From Escherichia phage vB_EcoM_PD328: a stretch of 59,156 nt of DNA. The stretch is taken from the sequence record ON922918; one strand, written 5' to 3'. Shown one piece after another: positions 3 through 59,156 of the stretch (within the stretch, counting starts at the first letter, position 1; each line of letters begins with the position of its first letter). The notes beneath the pieces were generated by a model, which made no database searches, was not told the origin of the DNA, and saw nothing but the letters and a program-made list of their open reading frames with translations. Made by a program: the position numbers and the translations under genes.

Positions 3-1394
3 ATGCAGAAGCTCCAGGACTTACCGTTCCCAGCGCATTGGGCGCTGTCCATAGAGCAGATTGCTATTGTGCGCTTCTACTGTATTAACGACCTTGATAC
101 AACAATGGCTCTGTTTAACTCACTGGAAGAGCAAATCCATCTACGTGAGATTATGAGTGAAGAGTATAAAGTAGATCTTCGCTCTAAATCTGATGCACAA
201 ATTGCAGAAGCTGTAATCCGTCATGAGATGAAGCAAATGCTGGGCTTTGTACCACAGAAAGGGATGGTGGAAGTCGGTAGAACCTTTAGATACAATCCTC
301 CAGTGTGGTTAGGTTTCCAGACGCCACTAATGAAGTCCGTATTTCAGGTGGTGCTTGACAGTTACTTCCGAGTTGCAGAAGATGGTAAAATTAAGCAACC
401 ATCCACAATGAACTCTCTGAAGTTTACAATCAACCAGACAACTTACAACATGGGTATCGGTGGTCTGCACTCGTGCGAAGAGTTAATGGAGATTGTACCA
501 TCTGAAGACGAAGAGATGTGGGATGCTGACGTAACATCGTACTACCCAATCTGTATCATTAACCAGCAACTGTATCCTGAACACCTGGGCCCGCGCTTTA
601 TAGATATCTTCGTTAAGATCGTAGAACGACGTATTGCAGCTAAGATGGCTCATGACGATAAGACTGCACAAACTCTTAAGATCGTTATTAACGGTTCTTA
701 TGGTAAGTTTGGTTCACCGTTCTCTATTCTGTATGCACCGCATCTTATTATTCAGACCACATTGACAGGTCAGTTAGCTCTACTTATGCTCATTGAAACA
801 CTGGAGCTTAACGGTATCCAGGTTGTTAGTGCTAACACAGATGGTATCGTTATTAAACCTTGCAAAGCTAAGAAGCAATTAATGACTGATATCATTAAGT
901 GGTGGGAAGCGACAACTGGCTTTGAAATGGAACTGAATCAGTACCTGCGCCTTAATTCTGCAAACGTTAACAACTACGTCGCAATTAAGGCGGATGGTAA
1001 AGCCAAGCGTAAAGGTTGGTTCGCAGAGACAGGCCTTGCTAAGAACGCGGAAGGTGAGATCATCATGGATGCTGTGGTTAATCTTCTCCGTGACGGTACG
1101 CCAATTGCTAAAACTATCACAGAGTGTCAGGACATTCGTAAGTTTGTTTGTATCAAGACAGCTAATGGTGGAGCTGCGTGGAATAGTGAGCCATTAGGTA
1201 AGGTTGTTCGCTGGTACTATACAAAAGAAGAAGTACCTGAAATACTGATAGTCAAGAGTGGGGGTCGTGTCGGTAAGACAGCAGGGGGTAAACCAATGAT
1301 GGAACTCACTGACCAGTTACCGCCAGATCTCAACCACGAAGTATACATAGCTAAAGCGGAAAAATTGCTGGAAAAACTCGCATACGCCGCTTAA
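3..1394 (+). CDS. DNA polymerase, 3' part (gene begins at 58452 and wraps across the window join)
   Basis: Family-B-like polymerase motifs in translation: DVTSYYPICII (motif A-like), KIVINGSYGKFG (motif B-like), SANTDGIVI (motif C-like), KADGKAKRKGWF (KxY-like). In frame with the ORF that starts at 58452 once the 125-nt terminal duplication is accounted for. Confidence 0.75.
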   Translation: MQKLQDLPFPAHWALSIEQIAIVRFYCINDLDTTMALFNSLEEQIHLREIMSEEYKVDLRSKSDAQIAEAVIRHEMKQMLGFVPQKGMVEVGRTFRYNPPVWLGFQTPLMKSVFQVVLDSYFRVAEDGKIKQPSTMNSLKFTINQTTYNMGIGGLHSCEELMEIVPSEDEEMWDADVTSYYPICIINQQLYPEHLGPRFIDIFVKIVERRIAAKMAHDDKTAQTLKIVINGSYGKFGSPFSILYAPHLIIQTTLTGQLALLMLIETLELNGIQVVSANTDGIVIKPCKAKKQLMTDIIKWWEATTGFEMELNQYLRLNSANVNNYVAIKADGKAKRKGWFAETGLAKNAEGEIIMDAVVNLLRDGTPIAKTITECQDIRKFVCIKTANGGAAWNSEPLGKVVRWYYTKEEVPEILIVKSGGRVGKTAGGKPMMELTDQLPPDLNHEVYIAKAEKLLEKLAYAA

Positions 1395-47677: not shown

Positions 47678-49681
47678 ATGTTCAAACTACGTGATTATCA
47701 GCAAGAAGCTGTAAATAGTACATTGCGCTATTTTATCAAGCATGGTGAAAAGTCAGGAAATCCTGTTATCTTGTTGCCTACAGGGACTGGTAAGTCCCTT
47801 GTAATTGCTGGTCTATTAAAGACAATTCATGATAATTGGGGTAGTACCCGCATGATGGTAATTACTCACGTAAAAGAATTGATAGACCAGAACCACGATA
47901 AGTTCAAGAAGTTATGGCCTGAAGCACCGACTGGTATTTATAGTGCTGGTATGGGTCGCAAGGATAAGAACGCAATGATAACGTTCGCAGGTATTCAGTC
48001 TGTTGCAAAACAAGCTAAATACTTTGAGGACGTTGATATTATTATAGTGGACGAATGTGACCTTATTAGTCCAAATCAGCAAACAAGTTATCAGAAGTTC
48101 TTTGCACATATCCGTGAAAAGAACCCATATCTAAAGATTATCGGTCTTACTGCTACAAGCTGGCGTCTTGGTTTTGGTTCTATTATCAAAGATGACTATG
48201 CTCCTAATGCTCTATTTGATGAAATCGTATTTAACGCGTGTACTGTAGAGTGCTTCAACTGGTTTATTGATGAAGGTTATCTGGTTCCATTAGTACCACG
48301 TAAAACAAAGAAAGAGTATGATGTAAGTGGTGTTCATACTCGAGGCGGTGAGTTCATTGAAAGTGAACTTCAGAAGGTTGTAAACGACCCTGATGTAACA
48401 CGCCATTTGTTAGATGATGCGATTAGTATTGCGGAAGAAGAGGGCAGAATGAGTTGGCTTATCTTTTGTGCTGGTGTAGACCATGCAAAAGATGTAAAAG
48501 ACTATCTCAATGAACGCGGTATTAGTTGCGAAGTTGTAACTGGTGATACACCGAAAGCCTTGCGTGACCAGTACCTCATTGACTTTAAAGCTGGTCGTTT
48601 GCAGGCAATAGCGAACAACAACGTATTGACCACAGGCTTTGACCATCCTGGTCTTGACTTGATAATTGGTATGCGCCCGTCCCAATCTTCCCGCTTATGG
48701 GTTCAGATGCTTGGACGTGGTACTCGACCTGATTATGCTGATGGTTTTGATTTGACCACAACGGAAGGTCGTTTGCAAGCTATCTCCGCTTCGCATAAAC
48801 AGAACTGTCTTGTACTAGACTATGCGGGTAATACAAGACGTCTTGGACCTATTAACGACCCTGTAATTCCTAAGCGTCCAGGGCAGAAAGGAAAGTCCGC
48901 TGCACCTGTTAAAGAATGCCCGGTATGTAAAACCTGGAACCATGCGTCGGTTCGCTATTGTGGTGGGTTAAAACCATTCGATACAAGCAGTATGTCCCAT
49001 GAAGAAATACTCTATCTTCAAGGATTAGGGTATACCATTACAAATAATAAAGCGTGTCGTGCTGGTTATTGCGGTCATGAGTTTACTTTTGAGAAGAAAC
49101 TGATGGCGAGTGCTAGTACGAAAGCTATTATCAAGAATGATTTACCAGTCACTGAGGTATTGAAAGTTGATATGGTGAGTTACTATCGTCATGAGAACAG
49201 GGGTGACCGTTCTAAGCCACCAACACTTCGTGTCGATTATCTTTGTGGCTCACAAACTATTCAACAATATATTTGTCTGTTCCATACTGGCTTTGCAGGC
49301 AAGAAAGCGCGTAACTGGTGGCGCGAGCATTGCAGCTTGGCAATCCCAGCCAACATTGACGAAGCTCTTAATGTGGTCAGCCAACTCCGTGTACCGACGC
49401 ACATCTATGTCAACTTGAAGGGTAAGTTCCCTGAAGTGTTGAATAGTTGTTATGACGGTAGTGAGTTTGGTAAGAAAGAAGCAACTAATGAACGTCCGGT
49501 TGTACAAATCGCGGCAATGAATGGCTTGTCCCAGTTTGGTGGAAGTTATACGAATAAGTTTGATGAAGACGAGCAGACTGATTCTCGTACGACAGTGTTG
49601 CATTCTACGTCTAATCAACCTATTCTTACTGGTAACGGTAAAGAGCTACCACCAGATTTTGATGACGACATTCCATTTTGA
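47678..49681 (+). CDS. SF2 DEAD/DEAH-box-type helicase with SSB-like C-terminal tail
   Basis: Walker A LPTGTGKS, motif II VDECDL, helicase C-domain motifs; protein ends ...LPPDFDDDIPF, identical to the conserved C-terminal tip of E. coli SSB. Confidence 0.7.
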   Translation: MFKLRDYQQEAVNSTLRYFIKHGEKSGNPVILLPTGTGKSLVIAGLLKTIHDNWGSTRMMVITHVKELIDQNHDKFKKLWPEAPTGIYSAGMGRKDKNAMITFAGIQSVAKQAKYFEDVDIIIVDECDLISPNQQTSYQKFFAHIREKNPYLKIIGLTATSWRLGFGSIIKDDYAPNALFDEIVFNACTVECFNWFIDEGYLVPLVPRKTKKEYDVSGVHTRGGEFIESELQKVVNDPDVTRHLLDDAISIAEEEGRMSWLIFCAGVDHAKDVKDYLNERGISCEVVTGDTPKALRDQYLIDFKAGRLQAIANNNVLTTGFDHPGLDLIIGMRPSQSSRLWVQMLGRGTRPDYADGFDLTTTEGRLQAISASHKQNCLVLDYAGNTRRLGPINDPVIPKRPGQKGKSAAPVKECPVCKTWNHASVRYCGGLKPFDTSSMSHEEILYLQGLGYTITNNKACRAGYCGHEFTFEKKLMASASTKAIIKNDLPVTEVLKVDMVSYYRHENRGDRSKPPTLRVDYLCGSQTIQQYICLFHTGFAGKKARNWWREHCSLAIPANIDEALNVVSQLRVPTHIYVNLKGKFPEVLNSCYDGSEFGKKEATNERPVVQIAAMNGLSQFGGSYTNKFDEDEQTDSRTTVLHSTSNQPILTGNGKELPPDFDDDIPF

Positions 49682-49688
49682 GGCTTAT

Positions 49689-49928
49689 ATGGCAAAAATG
49701 ACTTTTAGGAGTAATGACCATTTACCAGAAGAAGGTGAATGGAAGACTTTTAAAGAGTGGGAAGAGTTAGGCTATGGTGTAATTAAAGGTGAAAGAGCTA
49801 AACGGTTTATTCACGGTGTTGCAGTTTTTCACGAAAGTCAAGTAATCAATATTGAAGACGAGTTCGAAAAATATAAACGTGAAGAACTGCAAGGAATGTA
49901 TTGCGGACCAGAATGGTGGAAGGATTAA
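49689..49928 (+). CDS. hypothetical protein
   Basis: 79 aa from the ATG at residue 57 of the track ORF. Confidence 0.35.
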   Translation: MAKMTFRSNDHLPEEGEWKTFKEWEELGYGVIKGERAKRFIHGVAVFHESQVINIEDEFEKYKREELQGMYCGPEWWKD

Positions 49929-51596: not shown

Positions 51597-51622
51597 AAGG
51601 GGCATTTACTGCCCCTTTGTTA
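51597..51622 (+). terminator. rho-independent terminator
   Basis: AAGGGGCA-TTTAC-TGCCCCTT hairpin followed by TGTTATC. Confidence 0.5.
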
Positions 51623-51640
51623 TCTTACCCCGAGGTTCAA

Positions 51641-52405
51641 ATGTTTGCACAAGCCATTATCGCCCACCACTGGGCTCAAGCCAAATTTGGAAATCATATG
51701 AAAATTATTAATACTCAGGAACCTGAGAAGTTAGTTCGTGAACGTGGTATTCTTGACGTACATTCCATTTTTCATACCATTCAAGGCGAAGGCCCATTTT
51801 GTGGTCAACCTGCCGTATTCGTTCGATTAGCTGGTTGTAACCTGCAATGCCCAGGTTGCGATACAAACTATACGTCCAATCGTAAGAAAATGAGTCACAG
51901 TGATATTTGGCAAGAAATTGTTCGTGTCACTGGTGAAGCCAAGACTAAATTAGTTGTCATTACTGGTGGCGAACCTTTCCGTCAACCTGAAGTTGCTAAT
52001 TTTATCAACTACCTTATTGATATGAAAGGATATCGTGTGCAGGTTGAAACTAACGGAACTATGCCTATCCCGCGTGAACTCAACTATAACTGTGTGGTAG
52101 TATGTAGTCCTAAGGCAGCAAAGATTCACCCTAGCGTTTCCGCTCGAGCAAATGCTTTCAAATATGTAATGAAAAGCGGAAACGTCAACGAGGAAGATGG
52201 ATTACCGTTGCAGGCACTGGATCACCGTGCAACACCATTTATCGCACGTCCGCCTGTACACTTTAAAGGTAATATTTATCTTCAGCCTATGGATGAACAG
52301 GACGACGATGCTAATAAAGCAAACGCTCAAGCTGTCGTTAAATACGCAATGAAACATAATTATATCGTGCAATTGCAAGTTCATAAGTATTTAGGGGTTG
52401 AGTGA
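51641..52405 (+). CDS. queE: 7-carboxy-7-deazaguanine synthase (QueE, radical SAM)
   Basis: N-terminal HTIQGEGPFCGQPAVFVRLAGCNLQCPGCDT (QueE-type cysteine cluster) and VVITGGEPF; start taken at the ATG at residue 9 of the track ORF. Confidence 0.75.
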   Translation: MFAQAIIAHHWAQAKFGNHMKIINTQEPEKLVRERGILDVHSIFHTIQGEGPFCGQPAVFVRLAGCNLQCPGCDTNYTSNRKKMSHSDIWQEIVRVTGEAKTKLVVITGGEPFRQPEVANFINYLIDMKGYRVQVETNGTMPIPRELNYNCVVVCSPKAAKIHPSVSARANAFKYVMKSGNVNEEDGLPLQALDHRATPFIARPPVHFKGNIYLQPMDEQDDDANKANAQAVVKYAMKHNYIVQLQVHKYLGVE

Positions 52406-52656
52406 TGCGTGTAAAAGCTCTGTTTAAGACTACTAAAGTTATTGAGTTTCATGGTATTAAATTGACAGTTCCAAATTGGGTCACCTATCTTGCTTGTGAT
52501 AAAAACGGAACTCTGATGGGTTATGAAGGCGGGCCAATACATTGTAATGTGGAATATGGTCGTTGGGTTCCTGATATTGATGTTGGTTATTACGAGAAGA
52601 TTGCAAAAGTTGATCTTGAAGGGTTAGATTGGACTCGAACGTTGATTAAGGTATAG
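52402..52656 (+). CDS. hypothetical protein
   Basis: 84 aa ORF, start overlaps the QueE stop. Confidence 0.35.
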   Translation: MMRVKALFKTTKVIEFHGIKLTVPNWVTYLACDKNGTLMGYEGGPIHCNVEYGRWVPDIDVGYYEKIAKVDLEGLDWTRTLIKV

Positions 52657-52773
52657 AATGAAGTTATACGTTTTTGAAAACGCGTGGATGATCCCTGCCG
52701 CTAATGATCATTATGCGGGCGACGGTCAGCGTGCTAAAAGATACAATGTGTTCAACTAATAAGGTAAATTATT

Positions 52774-53526
52774 ATGATCAAATATGTCCAATTACTTGGT
52801 GAGATTGTTCCAGAAGATGTATTGAATAAGTGTCTGTTCGATGAAGACGGATTTGTAAAACATTATGTAGATACACCTTCACAGTTTGCATCTCACTCGG
52901 CTCTTGGATTTGTAATTCGAGCTGGATATGCAGTGGATGTGTTGAACGACATGAGTCCTACAGTCACTGTTTTTGTTGAAGGTATGGACGTACATGATCT
53001 TATGAATTTAAAGACCGTTTATAATACTCACGTCACGCCACCACGTAATGCACTTTACAAATGGCGTATCAATACTTCTGTTAGCAGAAGCCAGAAAGCA
53101 GCAGAAGAGAATGCCAAGAAGTATACGACATCTACTCAGAAATTAGCTTGTATGATGGACGATCTACTTAAAAACGCCTTTAAAGTTGAGCGGGACAAAG
53201 AAGGTGAGCCAGAAGTATTCATTAATGAAGCATTAATTAAAAAGGATCGTATCCAGGAGATTAAAGCTCCGCGTCCGAATAAATATATGCGCAAAATTAA
53301 AACTTTTGAATCGCATGATATTAACGGTAGCCCGATTGAAATTGATGTATGGGTTGACGTGTACGACGTAATTAAAGCATTCAATGTAACCAGTGGGCCC
53401 ATGCAACATACACTGAAGAAAGTGCTGTGTGCTGGTGAGCGCGGTCATAAAGACTTGCTGCAAGACCTCAACGACATTATTGCATCCGTTGAGCGTGAAA
53501 TTGAAATGGTTAAGGAAGGTAATTAA
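52774..53526 (+). CDS. hypothetical protein
   Basis: 250 aa ORF between queE and the Gat-QueC gene; no recognised motif. Confidence 0.4.
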   Translation: MIKYVQLLGEIVPEDVLNKCLFDEDGFVKHYVDTPSQFASHSALGFVIRAGYAVDVLNDMSPTVTVFVEGMDVHDLMNLKTVYNTHVTPPRNALYKWRINTSVSRSQKAAEENAKKYTTSTQKLACMMDDLLKNAFKVERDKEGEPEVFINEALIKKDRIQEIKAPRPNKYMRKIKTFESHDINGSPIEIDVWVDVYDVIKAFNVTSGPMQHTLKKVLCAGERGHKDLLQDLNDIIASVEREIEMVKEGN

Positions 53527-53527
53527 T

Positions 53528-54943
53528 ATGTGCTCTATCTTTGGTGTTATTACTAACGGTCAACCTGAAAGTCTTATCATTCGTAACGATATCAATGATC
53601 TTATTAAGGCTAGTATCAACCGTGGTCGTGACGGTCTTGGTGTACGCTTTACGCATGGTGACCACAGTATGCACCCGCAACGTATCGTCAGTGTCGGTAA
53701 GCAAACATCGCTGGAACGTCTTGTTAAAGTCGGGCGCATTACATCTCACGCTGGAGCTATTGGTAGCTTCACAATGATTGGTAACGCTCGCGCCGAACCG
53801 ACTACAGAGTGGGTTATTGACAAGAATGAGTGGGACCAGCAACCGTATCATATGGATGGTTGGACTATTGTTCATAACGGTACTATTGCGAACGATAAAG
53901 ACCTTCGTACCTATGCACTACAGACTAAAATTGATAGTGCTGCCATTGTTGAACAGTTAGCAGAATGTACACTTTCAGCGGATGAAATGTGTTTGTCTGA
54001 CTTTAATTACCTGTACAGTGTATTTCATGAAGTTATTCGTAAATTGAAAGGTAGCTTCGCAATCCTTGCAACACATGATTCCTTTCCGGGATGTGTGTTT
54101 ACAGCATGTAATTATCGTCCAATCTGGATCGGTAAGACTGATACTGGTATGTATTTCGCCAGCCAGGAAGACATGCTACCAACCCGTGCGATTAAGCAGA
54201 TGCTGAAACCTTATTCATGTAATGTGGTTACATCTACTGATGTATGCAATGAAGTTGATCTTATTCCAAATAAACAGACTCAACGCGCGTTAGTTGTCGC
54301 CAGTGGTGGCATGGACAGCACGGTGGCAGCTCAGATGTGCAAGTCCAATGGTCTGGAAGTCACTCTGATTAACTTCCAGTATGGTTGTCGTGCAGAAACT
54401 AATGAGTTAAAGGCTATTCGTAAGATTGCGGAAGTGATGGAAGTTCCGTTAGTTGAGTTCCCAATTCCAATCTACGATAAGAAAGACAGCCCGTTATTTG
54501 ATCAAGATGCTGCAATTGCTGGTGGCGAAGAAGGTGCTGAGTTTGCCCACGAATGGGTTCCAGCTCGTAACCTTGTGATGCTTTCTGTTGCTACTGCATA
54601 CGCAGAAGCTAACGGTTTCGACTATATTGTTCTTGGTAACAACCTAGAAGAAGCTGGAGCCTATCCGGACAACGAGCCTGAGTTTATTAACCGCTTTAAT
54701 CAGGTGCTACCATTCGCTGTAGGCGACGGTAAGCGCGTTGAAGTGCTCATGCCTGTAGGTAACTTAATGAAGCATGAAATTGTCGCTACAGGCCTGCGTT
54801 TAGGGGCCCCGCTTGAGCACACCTGGAGCTGTTACCGTAACGGGGATTTGCATTGTGGTACTTGCGGCCCTTGCATGATGCGTCGGACTGCGTTTAATAT
54901 TAATAACGCACAAGAAGTTATTAAATACGAAAGCGAGGCGTAA
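53528..54943 (+). CDS. queC: glutamine amidotransferase-QueC fusion protein (Gat-QueC)
   Basis: Starts MCSIFGV (N-terminal Cys nucleophile of class II amidotransferases); C-terminal half has the QueC PP-loop VVASGGMDST and zinc-binding CYRNGDLHCGTCGPC. Confidence 0.75.
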   Translation: MCSIFGVITNGQPESLIIRNDINDLIKASINRGRDGLGVRFTHGDHSMHPQRIVSVGKQTSLERLVKVGRITSHAGAIGSFTMIGNARAEPTTEWVIDKNEWDQQPYHMDGWTIVHNGTIANDKDLRTYALQTKIDSAAIVEQLAECTLSADEMCLSDFNYLYSVFHEVIRKLKGSFAILATHDSFPGCVFTACNYRPIWIGKTDTGMYFASQEDMLPTRAIKQMLKPYSCNVVTSTDVCNEVDLIPNKQTQRALVVASGGMDSTVAAQMCKSNGLEVTLINFQYGCRAETNELKAIRKIAEVMEVPLVEFPIPIYDKKDSPLFDQDAAIAGGEEGAEFAHEWVPARNLVMLSVATAYAEANGFDYIVLGNNLEEAGAYPDNEPEFINRFNQVLPFAVGDGKRVEVLMPVGNLMKHEIVATGLRLGAPLEHTWSCYRNGDLHCGTCGPCMMRRTAFNINNAQEVIKYESEA

Positions 54944-55267
54944 ATGAATAAATTGAGCAGCTTGGCAAGGATGGGTATAGCCCACAAGTGTTTCGGTAAT
55001 CCAATTCCTCAACAGGCTTATGATTTAATCGAAGCCGTTGAAGAAGCTATTTTGGACTTCAATCCTCAGTTGAAAGTGAATAAAGAAATTTACAAAGGAC
55101 ATAAATCACTTGAAGACATGATTAAAAGTCACATATCCGTATGGCGAGATGCGTTAGAAAAACTACATGAAGAGTCAACAGAACCGGATGATATAAGTTA
55201 TTATGCTCATGAACTTAGAGCACTCGCAGAGATTGAAGCAGCAGTTAAAGCAAAGTTAGGAGAATAA
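54944..55267 (+). CDS. hypothetical protein
   Basis: 107 aa ORF between the queC and queD homologues. Confidence 0.35.
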   Translation: MNKLSSLARMGIAHKCFGNPIPQQAYDLIEAVEEAILDFNPQLKVNKEIYKGHKSLEDMIKSHISVWRDALEKLHEESTEPDDISYYAHELRALAEIEAAVKAKLGE

Positions 55268-55268
55268 A

Positions 55269-55790
55269 ATGGGTTACACTGTTATTCGTTCACATGAGAT
55301 TTGCGCTGGTCATCGTGTTGTAGGGCATGAAAGTAAATGTCGCCACCTTCACGGTCACAACTATAAGTTCCATTTTAAAGTTGCGCCGAAGAAGACATTG
55401 TCGGAAGGTTACGTTAAGTCTGTAAGTGGATTTGCTCTAGAAGGATCCTTGGACGATGTAGGTCGCGTTATCGACTTTAGTGTGGTTAAAACTACACTCT
55501 GCCAATGGTTGGAAGATAACTGGGATCATAAGTTCCTGCATTGGAATCGTGATAATTTGATTGACGCTTTAAAAATTGCAGCAAGTCGCCCGAGTTGCCC
55601 TCTGGAACATGAAGACCATGAGCATTTCTTAAACTCGTTGGTAGCTTTACCATTCAACCCAACTGCGGAAAACTTAGCTGCATATATGGTTGACGTAATT
55701 GGTCCTCAACTGCTTGACCAATATGGTGTTGAATTGGTAGAATGCACCATTGAAGAAACGTCCAAATGTCATGTTAACTATTGCAAATAA
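55269..55790 (+). CDS. queD: 6-carboxy-5,6,7,8-tetrahydropterin synthase (QueD-like)
   Basis: CAGHRVVGHESKCRHLHGHNY zinc-binding Cys/His pattern typical of QueD/PTPS. Confidence 0.7.
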   Translation: MGYTVIRSHEICAGHRVVGHESKCRHLHGHNYKFHFKVAPKKTLSEGYVKSVSGFALEGSLDDVGRVIDFSVVKTTLCQWLEDNWDHKFLHWNRDNLIDALKIAASRPSCPLEHEDHEHFLNSLVALPFNPTAENLAAYMVDVIGPQLLDQYGVELVECTIEETSKCHVNYCK

Positions 55791-55816
55791 TTGACCACAC
55801 AAGGAAACTGCAAACC

Positions 55817-56431
55817 ATGAATGAATTTACAAAGATGACAAACCGAGCAGAAATTTCGCACAGTATTGAAAAGATTTTAAAGTTGATTGAAGGTGGCGAT
55901 GACTTGCGTGAAGGTTTAGTTGAAACTCCATTGCGCGTCGCTAAAGCATTTGAGACGTGGTTCGGGGGTTATTCTGTCGATATCGCATCCCTGTTCAAGA
56001 CATTTGAAGATGGTGGGGAAAACTGCGATGAAATGGTCATCGTCCGTGATATCCCTGTCTACAGTCATTGTGAGCATCATATGGCTCCTATTATTGGTCA
56101 TGCTGTGGTCGGGTATGTCCCGAATGGAAAAATTGTTGGCCTAAGTAAGTTATCTCGTGTGGTTGATGCTTTTAGCCGTCGTTTGCAAGTTCAGGAGCGT
56201 CTGACTAACCAGATTGCGGATGCTATCGTGGAACACTTAGACCCAAAAGCTGTGTGTGTTTACATTGATGCAAAACATATGTGTATGGAGTCGCGCGGTG
56301 TTAAACAAGTGTGTGGAAGCTCAACCATTACTAAAGCATTCCGTGGGCGTACTGCATTGGGCGATGGTGTATTACCTGATGTGACGGGTGACACATGGCG
56401 TCGGGAATTTCTTGAAGCGTGTAAAAAGTAA
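55817..56431 (+). CDS. folE: GTP cyclohydrolase I (FolE)
   Basis: Conserved SHCEHHMAP active-site motif and GTP cyclohydrolase I-like flanking regions; start at the ATG at residue 13 of the track ORF. Confidence 0.75.
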   Translation: MNEFTKMTNRAEISHSIEKILKLIEGGDDLREGLVETPLRVAKAFETWFGGYSVDIASLFKTFEDGGENCDEMVIVRDIPVYSHCEHHMAPIIGHAVVGYVPNGKIVGLSKLSRVVDAFSRRLQVQERLTNQIADAIVEHLDPKAVCVYIDAKHMCMESRGVKQVCGSSTITKAFRGRTALGDGVLPDVTGDTWRREFLEACKK

Positions 56432-56466
56432 CTGATTTGCGAATCATACATTATCTTTAATATAAT

Positions 56467-56491
56467 AAGCGCCTACGGGCGCTTATTTGTT
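56467..56491 (+). terminator. rho-independent terminator between folE and the DpdA-like gene
   Basis: AAGCGCC-TACG-GGCGCTT hairpin followed by ATTTGTT. Confidence 0.6.
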
Positions 56492-56500
56492 AGGTGAACA

Positions 56501-57454
56501 ATGCACAGAGAAGACATCAACTATACCTTTCAGATTTATATGGCTGCCGTGTATACGAACAGCTATAAACCGGGAATGAACCGCTATGTTAAACTCAACG
56601 AACAAGAAAAACGTGTTGTCGAAAATATTCCAAACATTCTTGAATCCTGGCACTACGTTGGAAAGCAATCATATGTTGATGCCATGCGTGCCGATGGGGC
56701 CAAGATATTCCTCGACTCCGGAGCGTTCTCAGCTTACACTTTGGGAGTTACGTTATCAGTTAAAGAATACTGCGATTATATCCAACGAAACATAGATATC
56801 ATTCGTGTAGAGGATGGTTCACTTATGGCTTCTGTACTCGATGGTATCGGAGATCCACTTCAAACGTGGCGCAACCAGGAAGAGATGGAAGCCAGGGGTG
56901 TAAGACCTTTACCATGCTTCCACGCGGGTGAACCTTTTGAATACCTGGACCATTATGTGCGAAATTATGAATACATCACTCTTGGTGGTCTTGTTGGAGC
57001 GAGTACACAACAACTCCAGGTATGGTTGGACAGGGTATGGGATAAACACCTTGTGGACGGTAGTGGGCGCGCGAAGATTAAAGTTCACGGATTTGGTATT
57101 ACGTCCCGTCCACTTATGGAGCGTTACCCGTGGTACTCTTGTGACTCATCCTCCTGGATCCAATCTGCAGCGTTCGGTGCTATTGAAACGCCTAAATGGG
57201 GGCCAATGCAGGTATCAGAAAAGTCTCCGTCACGTCACTATCAAGGGCAGCATATTTGTAACCTTTCAGAAATAGAACAGAATAACGTTCTACGCTACTT
57301 AGAGGAGTCAGGTTTCACATACGAGCGACTTTCAACGATATACGAATCACGCGCTGCATATAATTTATGGGCGTATGGTGTGGTCAACGCTATGATTCTT
57401 GCTAACCACAATGGGAAGTTCAACGAACGTCTCCAGGATTTATTTGACGAGTAA
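56501..57454 (+). CDS. dpdA: DpdA-like 7-deazaguanine DNA transglycosylase (TGT superfamily)
   Basis: TGT-fold-like motifs IFLDSGAFSA and VHGFG; immediately downstream of the preQ0 biosynthesis genes. Confidence 0.6.
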   Translation: MHREDINYTFQIYMAAVYTNSYKPGMNRYVKLNEQEKRVVENIPNILESWHYVGKQSYVDAMRADGAKIFLDSGAFSAYTLGVTLSVKEYCDYIQRNIDIIRVEDGSLMASVLDGIGDPLQTWRNQEEMEARGVRPLPCFHAGEPFEYLDHYVRNYEYITLGGLVGASTQQLQVWLDRVWDKHLVDGSGRAKIKVHGFGITSRPLMERYPWYSCDSSSWIQSAAFGAIETPKWGPMQVSEKSPSRHYQGQHICNLSEIEQNNVLRYLEESGFTYERLSTIYESRAAYNLWAYGVVNAMILANHNGKFNERLQDLFDE

Positions 57455-57462
57455 GGTTACTT

Positions 57463-58455
57463 ATGGATTTACTTGATGCTTTAAAGTTTGTTCAGGGTTC
57501 TGTAGCTAAGAAAGAACTCCAGGAAGGTTTAACTCACTTCCGTATTGTTGATGGTACTGTTCGCGGGTTCAACGGAACTATTTCATTGTGTAGCCCAGTA
57601 CCTTTGAACATTGACTGTACACCGAAAGCTGAACCAATGCTCAAGGCTATTGCAGCATGTGACGAAGCTGTACAGATGACAATGTTAGCGAACGGTAAGT
57701 TGAGCATTAAGTCTGGTGGCTTTAAGGTTAGTGTAGATACTCTTCAGAAACCAACTGCACACGTAGAGCCAGAAGGAACGATTCACGAAATAGACGGTCA
57801 GCTTTTTCTTAACGGTTTAAGCCGCGTAACGCCGTTTATAAGCGACGATGCTTCCCGCCCGTGGTCTTGTGGCGTGCTGGTAAAACAGGGCAGCATGTAC
57901 GCGACCAACAACGCTAGTATTATACAATATTGGTTCGGTGCTGTGTTCCCTGTTGATTGTGTTGTACCACGTATGGCCATCAAAGAATTATTGCGCATTA
58001 AAAAGCCACCAGTAAGAATTCAATGTACAGATACCAGTATGACATTTCACTACGAAGACGGTTGCTGGTTGCGTACCCAATTGCTGGAATTAAAGTGGCC
58101 CAACATTGACAAGATAATTGAGCGTACAGAAAAGGGGTCTGACGTCTATACGCTTGATACTGAACTTTTTAACTGCTTAGAGAAAATAAAACCGTTCTGT
58201 GAACGTGATGGGCGTATTTATATGGAAAATGGCGTCGTGCGTACCCATTACAACGAGCTGGACGGTGCTAGTGCAATGTTCCGTGAATCCAAGTCAATTG
58301 GCGTGTATAATATAGATCTTATTATGCAGTTGAAAGGACTTGCAACGGATTGGGACGCTTCTCGTTTCAATGAAAAGGACGAAAGGGGTCTTTCAACTCC
58401 TATTATTTTTTATGGTGAAAATCTACGTGGGGTAATTGTAGGATTTCGTCTATGA
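57463..58455 (+). CDS. DNA polymerase sliding clamp, beta-clamp (DnaN)-like (putative)
   Basis: 330 aa; pattern similarity to bacterial beta clamp over three repeated domains; directly upstream of, and overlapping by 4 nt, the DNA polymerase gene. Confidence 0.45.
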   Translation: MDLLDALKFVQGSVAKKELQEGLTHFRIVDGTVRGFNGTISLCSPVPLNIDCTPKAEPMLKAIAACDEAVQMTMLANGKLSIKSGGFKVSVDTLQKPTAHVEPEGTIHEIDGQLFLNGLSRVTPFISDDASRPWSCGVLVKQGSMYATNNASIIQYWFGAVFPVDCVVPRMAIKELLRIKKPPVRIQCTDTSMTFHYEDGCWLRTQLLELKWPNIDKIIERTEKGSDVYTLDTELFNCLEKIKPFCERDGRIYMENGVVRTHYNELDGASAMFRESKSIGVYNIDLIMQLKGLATDWDASRFNEKDERGLSTPIIFYGENLRGVIVGFRL

Positions 58456-59156
58456 GAAAAGATGCTATTGGTTTCTTTTGGGAGGATTTACCTCCCGCTA
58501 AGAAAGAGAAGAAACAGAAAGTAAAACGTCAACCAGTTGAAAGGGTATGGGAGCGCCCAGACTACCTTCCAGGTCTTGATGCAGCAATGCGTTTTGCAGC
58601 TAACGATCCGCGTATGACAGACGGTGAGTTAGTGGAGATGTATTTTGCACAAGAAACGTTCGTATACGATATCGAATGCTATAAGAACTATTTTCTTGTA
58701 GCGTTTAAAGGGGTTAAGTTCGGTAAGGTTTATTATCTAGAAATGACTGCCGGTCAGACACTTGACACGGAAAAGTATGAATGGATAATGAAGAACTTTC
58801 GTACCGTTGGTTTCAACTCAAGAAACTACGATAATACGATGACATTCCTTGCCATTGCGGGTCTGACTGTTGACAAGCTGAAAGAAGCAAGTGACAGGAT
58901 GATCCAGGAAGAGTGGGCCCCGTGGGACGTTCTCAACAGTTTTGGTGTGGAGCAGTTTTGGATTGACCACATTGACGTTCAAGAAGTAGCGCCTGGCTTC
59001 GGTTCACTGAAGCTGTATGGTGGCCGTATGCACATGCAGAAGCTCCAGGACTTACCGTTCCCAGCGCATTGGGCGCTGTCCATAGAGCAGATTGCTATTG
59101 TGCGCTTCTACTGTATTAACGACCTTGATACAACAATGGCTCTGTTTAACTCACTG
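58452..59156 (+). CDS. DNA polymerase, 5' part (continues at position 3 across the window join)
   Basis: ORF runs to the window end with no stop; contains an exonuclease-I-like FVYDIE motif; last 125 nt identical to the first 125 nt and in frame with the 3..1394 ORF. Confidence 0.7.
   Translation, partial: MRKDAIGFFWEDLPPAKKEKKQKVKRQPVERVWERPDYLPGLDAAMRFAANDPRMTDGELVEMYFAQETFVYDIECYKNYFLVAFKGVKFGKVYYLEMTAGQTLDTEKYEWIMKNFRTVGFNSRNYDNTMTFLAIAGLTVDKLKEASDRMIQEEWAPWDVLNSFGVEQFWIDHIDVQEVAPGFGSLKLYGGRMHMQKLQDLPFPAHWALSIEQIAIVRFYCINDLDTTMALFNSL

Follow-up and report, generated by a model that had tools for sequence, protein, structure and literature searches.

A DnaN-type sliding clamp gene overlapping a B-family DNA polymerase gene in Escherichia phage vB_EcoM_PD328, and a conserved polymerase N-terminus as its probable tether

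The sequence of Escherichia phage vB_EcoM_PD328 (record ON922918), analysed here as a single stretch of 59,156 nucleotides that we call the window, carries at positions 57463..58455 of the plus strand a gene for a 330-residue protein, which we describe below as a three-domain, beta-type, DnaN-like sliding clamp, that is, a DNA polymerase processivity factor. An earlier interpretation made from the letters alone, the sequence-only reading, had proposed a beta-clamp-like protein translationally coupled to the DNA polymerase encoded directly downstream. The gene starts with ATG at 57463 and ends with TGA at 58453-58455. As read from the sequence, a Shine-Dalgarno-like AAGG (57453..57456, plus strand) lies 6 nt before the start codon and overlaps the TAA stop of the preceding dpdA-like gene. 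The polymerase gene follows on the same strand, and its own Shine-Dalgarno sequence, AGGA (58440..58443), is located within the 3' end of the clamp gene, 8 nt before the polymerase ATG. The predicted 4-nt overlap between the two genes is indeed present: the ATGA at 58452..58455 holds the polymerase start and the clamp stop and is common to both open reading frames (ORFs). From this overlap and the Shine-Dalgarno sequence we infer that translation is coupled from clamp to polymerase.

The resemblance to DnaN announced by the sequence-only reading proved real but weak at the level of the single sequence. The clamp protein matched the dnaN family TIGR00663 with E = 8.7e-6 and 24.9 bits, the Pfam beta-clamp domains PF00712, PF02767 and PF02768 gave no match at E<=10, and the best match in a single-sequence search of the PDB was a beta clamp with a marginal E of 0.2. 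The phage family PHROG 947, 'DNA polymerase processivity factor', was matched over the full length of the protein (E = 8.5e-82, clamp residues 2-330 aligned to positions 11-365 of the 368-position profile). We then relied on a clamp family profile built from 61 homologues, which was used for PDB search, hhalign and AlphaFold2. With this profile the only PDB matches above noise were beta sliding clamps (E 3.9e-6 to 6.4e-5), one unrelated adhesin appearing at E 0.077, and hhalign against E. coli DnaN returned probabilities of 85-94%. Sequence similarity to DnaN is thus significant with the family profile, with hhalign and with TIGR00663. By these comparisons the protein is a divergent phage homologue, too diverged for a cellular DnaN orthologue.

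The structural model was more telling. AlphaFold2 predicted the clamp monomer with a mean pLDDT (predicted local distance difference test) of 92.6 and a pTM (predicted template modelling score) of 0.87, as a repeating strand/helix pattern across three domains with two helices per domain. The model therefore displays the DnaN-like three-domain fold whose absence would have spoken against a clamp, with three tandem DNA-clamp domains, each a duplicated beta-alpha-beta3 unit, in one chain. When it was compared to the PDB with Foldseek, the top 50 matches were all bacterial beta clamps (50/50), with E down to 6e-20 and template modelling (TM) scores of 0.72-0.78, at sequence identities of 13-18%. 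We regard this predicted structure as decisive: the protein is, on the model, a three-domain DnaN-type sliding clamp. Two other clamp types were considered and rejected, namely the PCNA / T4 gp45 type, a trimer of two-domain subunits of ~230-260 residues, and the herpesvirus UL42/UL44 type, loader-free with a basic DNA-binding face or a raised isoelectric point (pI).

The polymerase gene runs out of the window, its first 235 codons occupying 58452..59156. It continues, via a 125-nt sequence repeated identically at both ends (1-125 = 59032-59156), into positions 126..1394 of the same strand, where motif C reads NTDG. These identical ends indicate that the window is one complete genome of ~59,031 bp, that of a 9g/JenP1-like Nonagvirus (Queuovirinae), and the assembly is circularly closed or terminally redundant, opened within the DNA polymerase gene. 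The whole polymerase comprises 657 residues, is 99% identical to the JenP1 polymerase and matches PHROG 1252, 'DNA polymerase', with E = 8e-228. Its best match in a PDB sequence search was Sulfolobus PolB1 (1s5j, E = 9e-9), followed by E. coli Pol II and Pol alpha with marginal E of 0.05-0.6. All the motifs of B-family polymerases could be located: Exo I-III as YDIE, NSRNYD and YCINDLD, motif A (DxxSxYP) as DVTSYYP, motif B (KxxxNSxYG-like) as KIVINGSYGKFG and motif C as ANTDG. The NTDG sequence is the signature of the 'PolIIphages' subgroup defined by Kazlauskas & Venclovas 2011 (PMC3201878). Judged by its motifs, the downstream gene is a small B-family DNA polymerase.

The clamp family is widespread and its association with a polymerase gene is conserved. 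A tblastn search recovered the clamp in 316 phage records, with hosts including Pseudomonas, Escherichia, Stenotrophomonas, Vibrio, Xanthomonas and Rhizobium, and an exhaustive profile search gathered 3510 cluster representatives at E<=1e-3, 893 of them at E<=1e-30. These homologues, together with the PHROG 947 match, show that the ORF did not arise by chance. Of 80 related IMG/VR loci, 76 have a polymerase gene directly after the clamp gene and in the same orientation, B-family in 71 and A-family in 5; in another three the polymerase ORF after the clamp is cut by the contig end. Among the 70 loci where the junction could be measured, 39 show an overlap of the two genes (1, 4 or 11 nt) and 10 a distance of at most 70 nt, while in the other 21, including a locus like that of Salmonella phage SE1 (L004), the genes lie 147-1224 nt apart; the long spacers are most likely inserted ORFs. 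The same order, clamp then polymerase, was found in Lokivirus (Shy, IME_AB3), Septimatrevirus (UF_RH1) and Xanthomonas phage XAJ2, whose clamps are only 22-26% identical to that of the window. In these distant genera it closes a conserved module ordered Sak4/RecA, SSB, Cas4-like exonuclease, helicase, clamp and polymerase. The clamps of Shy, UF_RH1, XAJ2 and IME_AB3 (L084-L087) carry Lys/Arg-rich N-terminal tails of 20-50 residues that the window clamp lacks. Because the gene order is conserved, we consider that clamp and polymerase are functionally linked.

How the two proteins might be held together is suggested by the extreme N-terminus of the polymerase. Residues 1-12, MRKDAIGFFWED (58452..58487, plus strand), form a candidate clamp-binding motif of pattern R-x-D-[AS]-[IL]-G-[LF]-F-W-x-D, borne in the window polymerase by the N-terminal peptide MRKDAIGFFWEDL. 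This motif was present in every neighbouring-polymerase N-terminus examined in related loci and is essentially invariant over 59 distinct N-termini, with 4.1-4.3 bits for the R, D, G, F, W and D positions. It is followed by a Lys/Pro-rich linker, LPPAKKEKKQKVKRQPV (58488..58538, plus strand), which separates it from the polymerase body and is variable in length, with low information per column. After the linker comes a second conserved segment, P-P-E-x-x-W-x-x-P-D-Y-L-P-G-L (residues ~30-50, 58539-58601), which could be a second clamp contact or a site for another replisome partner. In seven loci (L016, L018, L022, L023, L033, L055, L056) the linker contains an insertion of ~45 residues. This insertion (…DYKTEKKQxLLxEEGWxQVFPGFWAE…) was seen to hold a second GFW-like element.

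The same module is found on polymerases of another family. In five loci (L047, L054, L070, L074, L077) the clamp gene is followed by an A-family polymerase, recognized by Pfam DNA_pol_A (E 1e-57 to 1e-64) and DNA_pol_A_exo1, and these enzymes begin with the same N-terminal module of ~60 residues, for example MRNDSIGLFWEDIPVAK...IPPTPDTGWVRPTYFPDL, the second conserved segment being common to the B-family and A-family versions. These loci look like a polymerase swap that kept the clamp-side module. Conversely, the PolB homologues of Klebsiella phage phi_270, Rhodobacter phage RcSalem and Xanthomonas phage FoX4 start at the ExoI motif, without the module, and no clamp gene was found within 3.5 kb of them. 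The complete genomes of phi_270 and RcSalem contained no member of the clamp family (best E 0.68; the window, searched as a positive control, gave 6.7e-153). In a fourth PolB homologue, from Enterococcus phage LY0323, an unrelated N-terminal region takes the place of the module. Its presence on A-family polymerases and its absence from PolB homologues with no clamp gene nearby tie the module to the clamp and not to the polymerase fold. Polymerases of the distant clades (L084-L087) begin with MFFDD, MFFND or MSLFD, and several end with SSLFD, ALSFF or DLFED after a Lys-rich stretch; either end of these proteins may bear a version of the motif described above.

Polymerases typically bind their clamp through a short hydrophobic motif that sits on a flexible tether at one end of the chain. 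The C-terminus of E. coli Pol II, as read from MG1655 polB, is QLGLF, its beta-binding motif, and the cores of the phage motif, ALGLF, SLGLF and AIGFF, are close to it. Among the proteins of the window, GFFW or terminal QLxLF-like motifs were sought and found in the polymerase only; an internal QLNLVF in a tail protein was taken as a chance occurrence. The N-terminal module is therefore a probable clamp tether. These observations also bear on a quite different role, in which the clamp would be a decoy directed at the host, titrating its clamp loader or beta-binding proteins, or forming mixed dimers with host beta, so that host replication is shut down or its factors are taken. The order of the clamp and phage polymerase genes and their overlap persist from genus to genus, the polymerase module accompanies the clamp even where the polymerase family changes, and an identity of ~14% to E. 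coli beta makes mixed dimers unlikely. We hold such a decoy to be highly improbable.

The most conserved parts of the clamp family may correspond to its partner-binding site. The most conserved block of the family, residues 128-150 (DDASRPWSCG...ATNN; 57844..57912, plus strand), is aligned by hhalign to E. coli beta 149-174 (QDVRYYLNG...ATDG), with D129, A130, R132, G137, A147, T148, N149 and N150 invariant. The invariant pair W212-P213 (58096..58101, plus strand) aligns with F241-P242 of E. coli beta, P242 being a cleft residue, and the C-terminal strand LRGVIVGFRL (residues 321-330; 58423..58452, plus strand), with R322, G323 and G327 invariant, aligns with the E. coli C-terminus YVVMPMRL in the global hhalign run. 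That run misaligned domain I, so that only the correspondences in domains II and III and at the C-terminus were used; they agree with the local run. Altogether the invariant positions of the family fall on E. coli beta 149-157, 171-174, 241-242 and 360-366, segments that we take, from known beta-peptide structures, to build the partner-binding cleft, of which YVVMPMRL forms part. The cleft of E. coli beta has G174-H175, whereas the phage clamp has NN instead.

A ring clamp requires a loader, and we could not detect one encoded by the phage. The annotation of the JenP1 record (60.8 kb), examined over 50 kb that include every early and replication gene, lists no clamp loader. Within the window, strict Walker A motifs are confined to TerL, the large terminase, and a Sak4-like protein, and the uncharacterized early ORFs gave no AAA+, DnaX or HolA/B match when compared to PHROGs and Pfam. 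The pI of the clamp is 5.84 in the window, with a family median of 5.5-5.8, compared to 5.25 for E. coli beta. According to Kazlauskas & Venclovas 2011 (PMC3201878), orphan viral clamps may rely on the loader of the host or, as basic factors that form no ring, attach to DNA on their own, with the pI as discriminator. By this criterion the acidic pI predicts a ring that needs a loader, and the half-ring fold of the model combined with the acidic pI points to a head-to-tail dimer. With an acidic clamp and no sign of a phage loader, the likeliest loader is the host DnaX complex, and we infer that a closed ring loaded by this complex is the likeliest mechanism. In beta, the partner-binding cleft is also where the delta subunit of this complex binds. 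The sequence-only reading had expected a phage with its own clamp to be less dependent on host processivity factors: this holds only for the clamp itself, since no phage gene for a loader was found and loading is probably still a task of the host.

The missing loader would equally be explained if the protein, despite its clamp fold, were a processivity factor that needs no loader and attaches to DNA by itself, either as a monomer or as an open dimer, like herpesvirus UL44/UL42. This mode was proposed for orphan viral clamps in the same survey (PMC3201878), and the basic N-terminal tails of the Shy, XAJ2 and UF_RH1 homologues could bind DNA. However, the pI is acidic and the fit to beta clamps is much closer, and we consider this alternative unlikely.

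Taken together, a phage beta-type ring clamp, made along with its B-family polymerase, docked by the polymerase N-terminus and loaded by the host, is the best explanation of the whole, and we regard it as probable. Under this scheme, clamp and polymerase would be made together from overlapping genes, and two three-domain clamp chains would close into a ring of six domains that encircles duplex DNA. Opening this ring and placing it on primer ends would fall to the host DnaX (gamma/tau) clamp-loader complex. The extreme N-terminus of the polymerase, on its flexible Lys/Pro-rich linker, would insert into the cleft between clamp domains II and III, a docking that would resemble the use of QL[SD]LF-type motifs by host polymerases. 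The clamp would then keep the phage polymerase on primed DNA for processive copying of the ~59-kb genome. More tentatively, and with a little less than even chances in our estimation, the portable module of ~60 residues (R-x-D-[AS]-[IL]-G-[LF]-F-W-x-D motif, Lys/Pro linker and W-x-x-P-x-Y-L-P segment) would be a dedicated tether swapped between PolB and PolA enzymes while the clamp stayed in place, the orphan ring parasitising the host DnaX loader.

Several points weigh against this explanation. The score against TIGR00663, an NCBIfam equivalog, is far below the curated cut-off of 137.65 bits, and no Pfam family at all matched the clamp protein even at E<=10. Unlike canonical beta-binding motifs, the polymerase motif has no leading Gln, and it carries an additional Trp and Asp, both invariant, so that it may have another target. 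The conservation of the cleft rests on a profile alignment of moderate confidence. The use of a host loader is argued from the failure to detect a phage loader, and a novel one could be unrecognisable; a 250-residue ORF at 52774..53526 (PHROG 18443), which has no Pfam domain and whose C-terminal part weakly matches a PHROG labelled 'ATPase', is the sole faint candidate of the early region for an unrecognised accessory ATPase. Finally, the searchable literature yielded no experimental or biochemical study of this clamp family.

The region directly upstream of the clamp gene (51617-57454) is occupied by a cluster for 7-deazaguanine (archaeosine-type) DNA modification. It comprises genes for a radical-SAM QueE-like protein (51617..52405), Gat-QueC (53429..54943), QueD (55269..55790), FolE (55781..56431) and a DpdA-like transglycosylase (56501..57454), the last of which adjoins the clamp gene and whose product had no Pfam match at E<=0.1. 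In Nonagvirus this cluster is located between the helicase and clamp genes. The position of the clamp gene between the dpdA-like and polymerase genes is what could be expected if the clamp chiefly served other DNA enzymes, such as the DpdA-like transglycosylase inserting 7-deazaguanine into DNA, the ligase or RNase H, with the polymerase as a secondary client; clamps are, as a rule, tool-belts shared by several enzymes (PMC9690074). We give this possibility very little credit: the clamp-polymerase order persists in phages without 7-deazaguanine genes in the clamp neighbourhood, and the motif search described above singled out the polymerase, DpdA being among the proteins without a GFFW or terminal QLxLF-like sequence.

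Relatives of the window phage carry additional ORFs between folE and dpdA, in the JenP1 gp33 region. Extra DNA near the clamp may represent insertions of the homing-endonuclease type, and a figure legend in the paper on Pantoea phage Vid5 mentions an HNH gene in the clamp/polymerase region (PMC6266253). Further upstream, a 135-residue ORF (49521-49928) overlaps the end of the helicase gene; its match to the N-terminal domain of ArdC (anti-restriction) stays below the threshold (E 5.8e-4, 20.5 bits compared to a cut-off of 22.6). The DNA around the clamp gene is 94-96% identical to that of 17 Nonagvirus genomes, among them Enterobacteria phages 9g, JenP1, JenP2 and JenK1, Salmonella phage SE1 and Escherichia phage ChristophMerian.

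The presence of a clamp beside the polymerase is already known from RefSeq and GenBank annotation and from genome papers on related phages, so that the finding itself is correct but ordinary. The window clamp is 100% identical to JenP1 gp31, named 'DNA polymerase processivity factor' in RefSeq, and GenBank records of relatives label it 'DNA polymerase (III) beta subunit'. Vid5 ORF30, ~46% identical to the window clamp, was reported as a PolIII-beta homologue with an HHpred probability of 100% to 3T0P_B (PMC6266253), the 9g genome paper mentions 'two DNA polymerase subunits' (PMC4276943), and phage PolIII-beta homologues were surveyed as a class in PMC3201878 and PMC4889955. What the analysis adds is evidence that an N-terminal module common to B-family and A-family polymerases may tether them to the clamp, a use of the clamp that may have gone undescribed so far, and the argument that widespread orphan clamps probably use the host loader. 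The 2011 survey knew bacterial-type clamps in only 12 phages (PMC3201878); the homologues collected here indicate that they are common in mid-sized siphoviruses, where they travel without a loader. If our interpretation is true, thousands of siphoviruses of 40-60 kb would operate a hybrid replicase made of a phage polymerase, a phage beta clamp and a host loader. Should both the tether and the dependence on the host loader hold, the system would offer a compact and tractable model for the loading of a foreign clamp by a host loader, and also for the movement of clamp-binding peptides between polymerase families and for the separation of a phage replicase from host beta-clamp traffic.

Compared to the bacterial beta clamps (DnaN; E. 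coli beta, and Eubacterium rectale in PDB 3T0P), the phage clamp is 12-18% identical and ~36 residues shorter. Bacterial beta serves Pol III alpha, whereas the phage clamp adjoins a B-family, sometimes an A-family, polymerase in a phage without dnaX, holA or holB. The PHROG 947 factors of Queuovirinae and related siphoviruses (9g, JenP1, CAjan/Seurat, Pantoea phage Vid5 ORF30) belong to the same gene family. The phage clamps described by Kazlauskas & Venclovas 2011/2016 (0305phi8-36, Ma-LMM01, RSL1) are also of bacterial type and some of them are loader-less, which poses the same problem of loading, but the orphan clamp of Bacillus phage 0305phi8-36 has a raised pI and is predicted to bind DNA directly, whereas the window family is acidic. 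Ma-LMM01 and RSL1 exceed 150 kb and combine a PolIII-gamma homologue with PolA, unlike the 59-kb phage studied here with its PolII-like 'NTDG' PolB. The logic of a phage clamp, a B-family polymerase and a terminal peptide tether is the same as in T4, where gp45, related in type to PCNA, is bound by the C-terminal tail of gp43 and loaded by gp44/62. E. coli Pol II is likewise a B-family enzyme that uses the beta clamp, and its QLGLF resembles the phage core [AS][IL]G[LF]F; compared to it, the phage motif is without Gln, has Arg, Asp, Trp and Asp as further invariant residues, and stands at the N-terminus on a Lys/Pro linker. A precedent for this N-terminal placement is provided by the QLSLPL motif of Hda.

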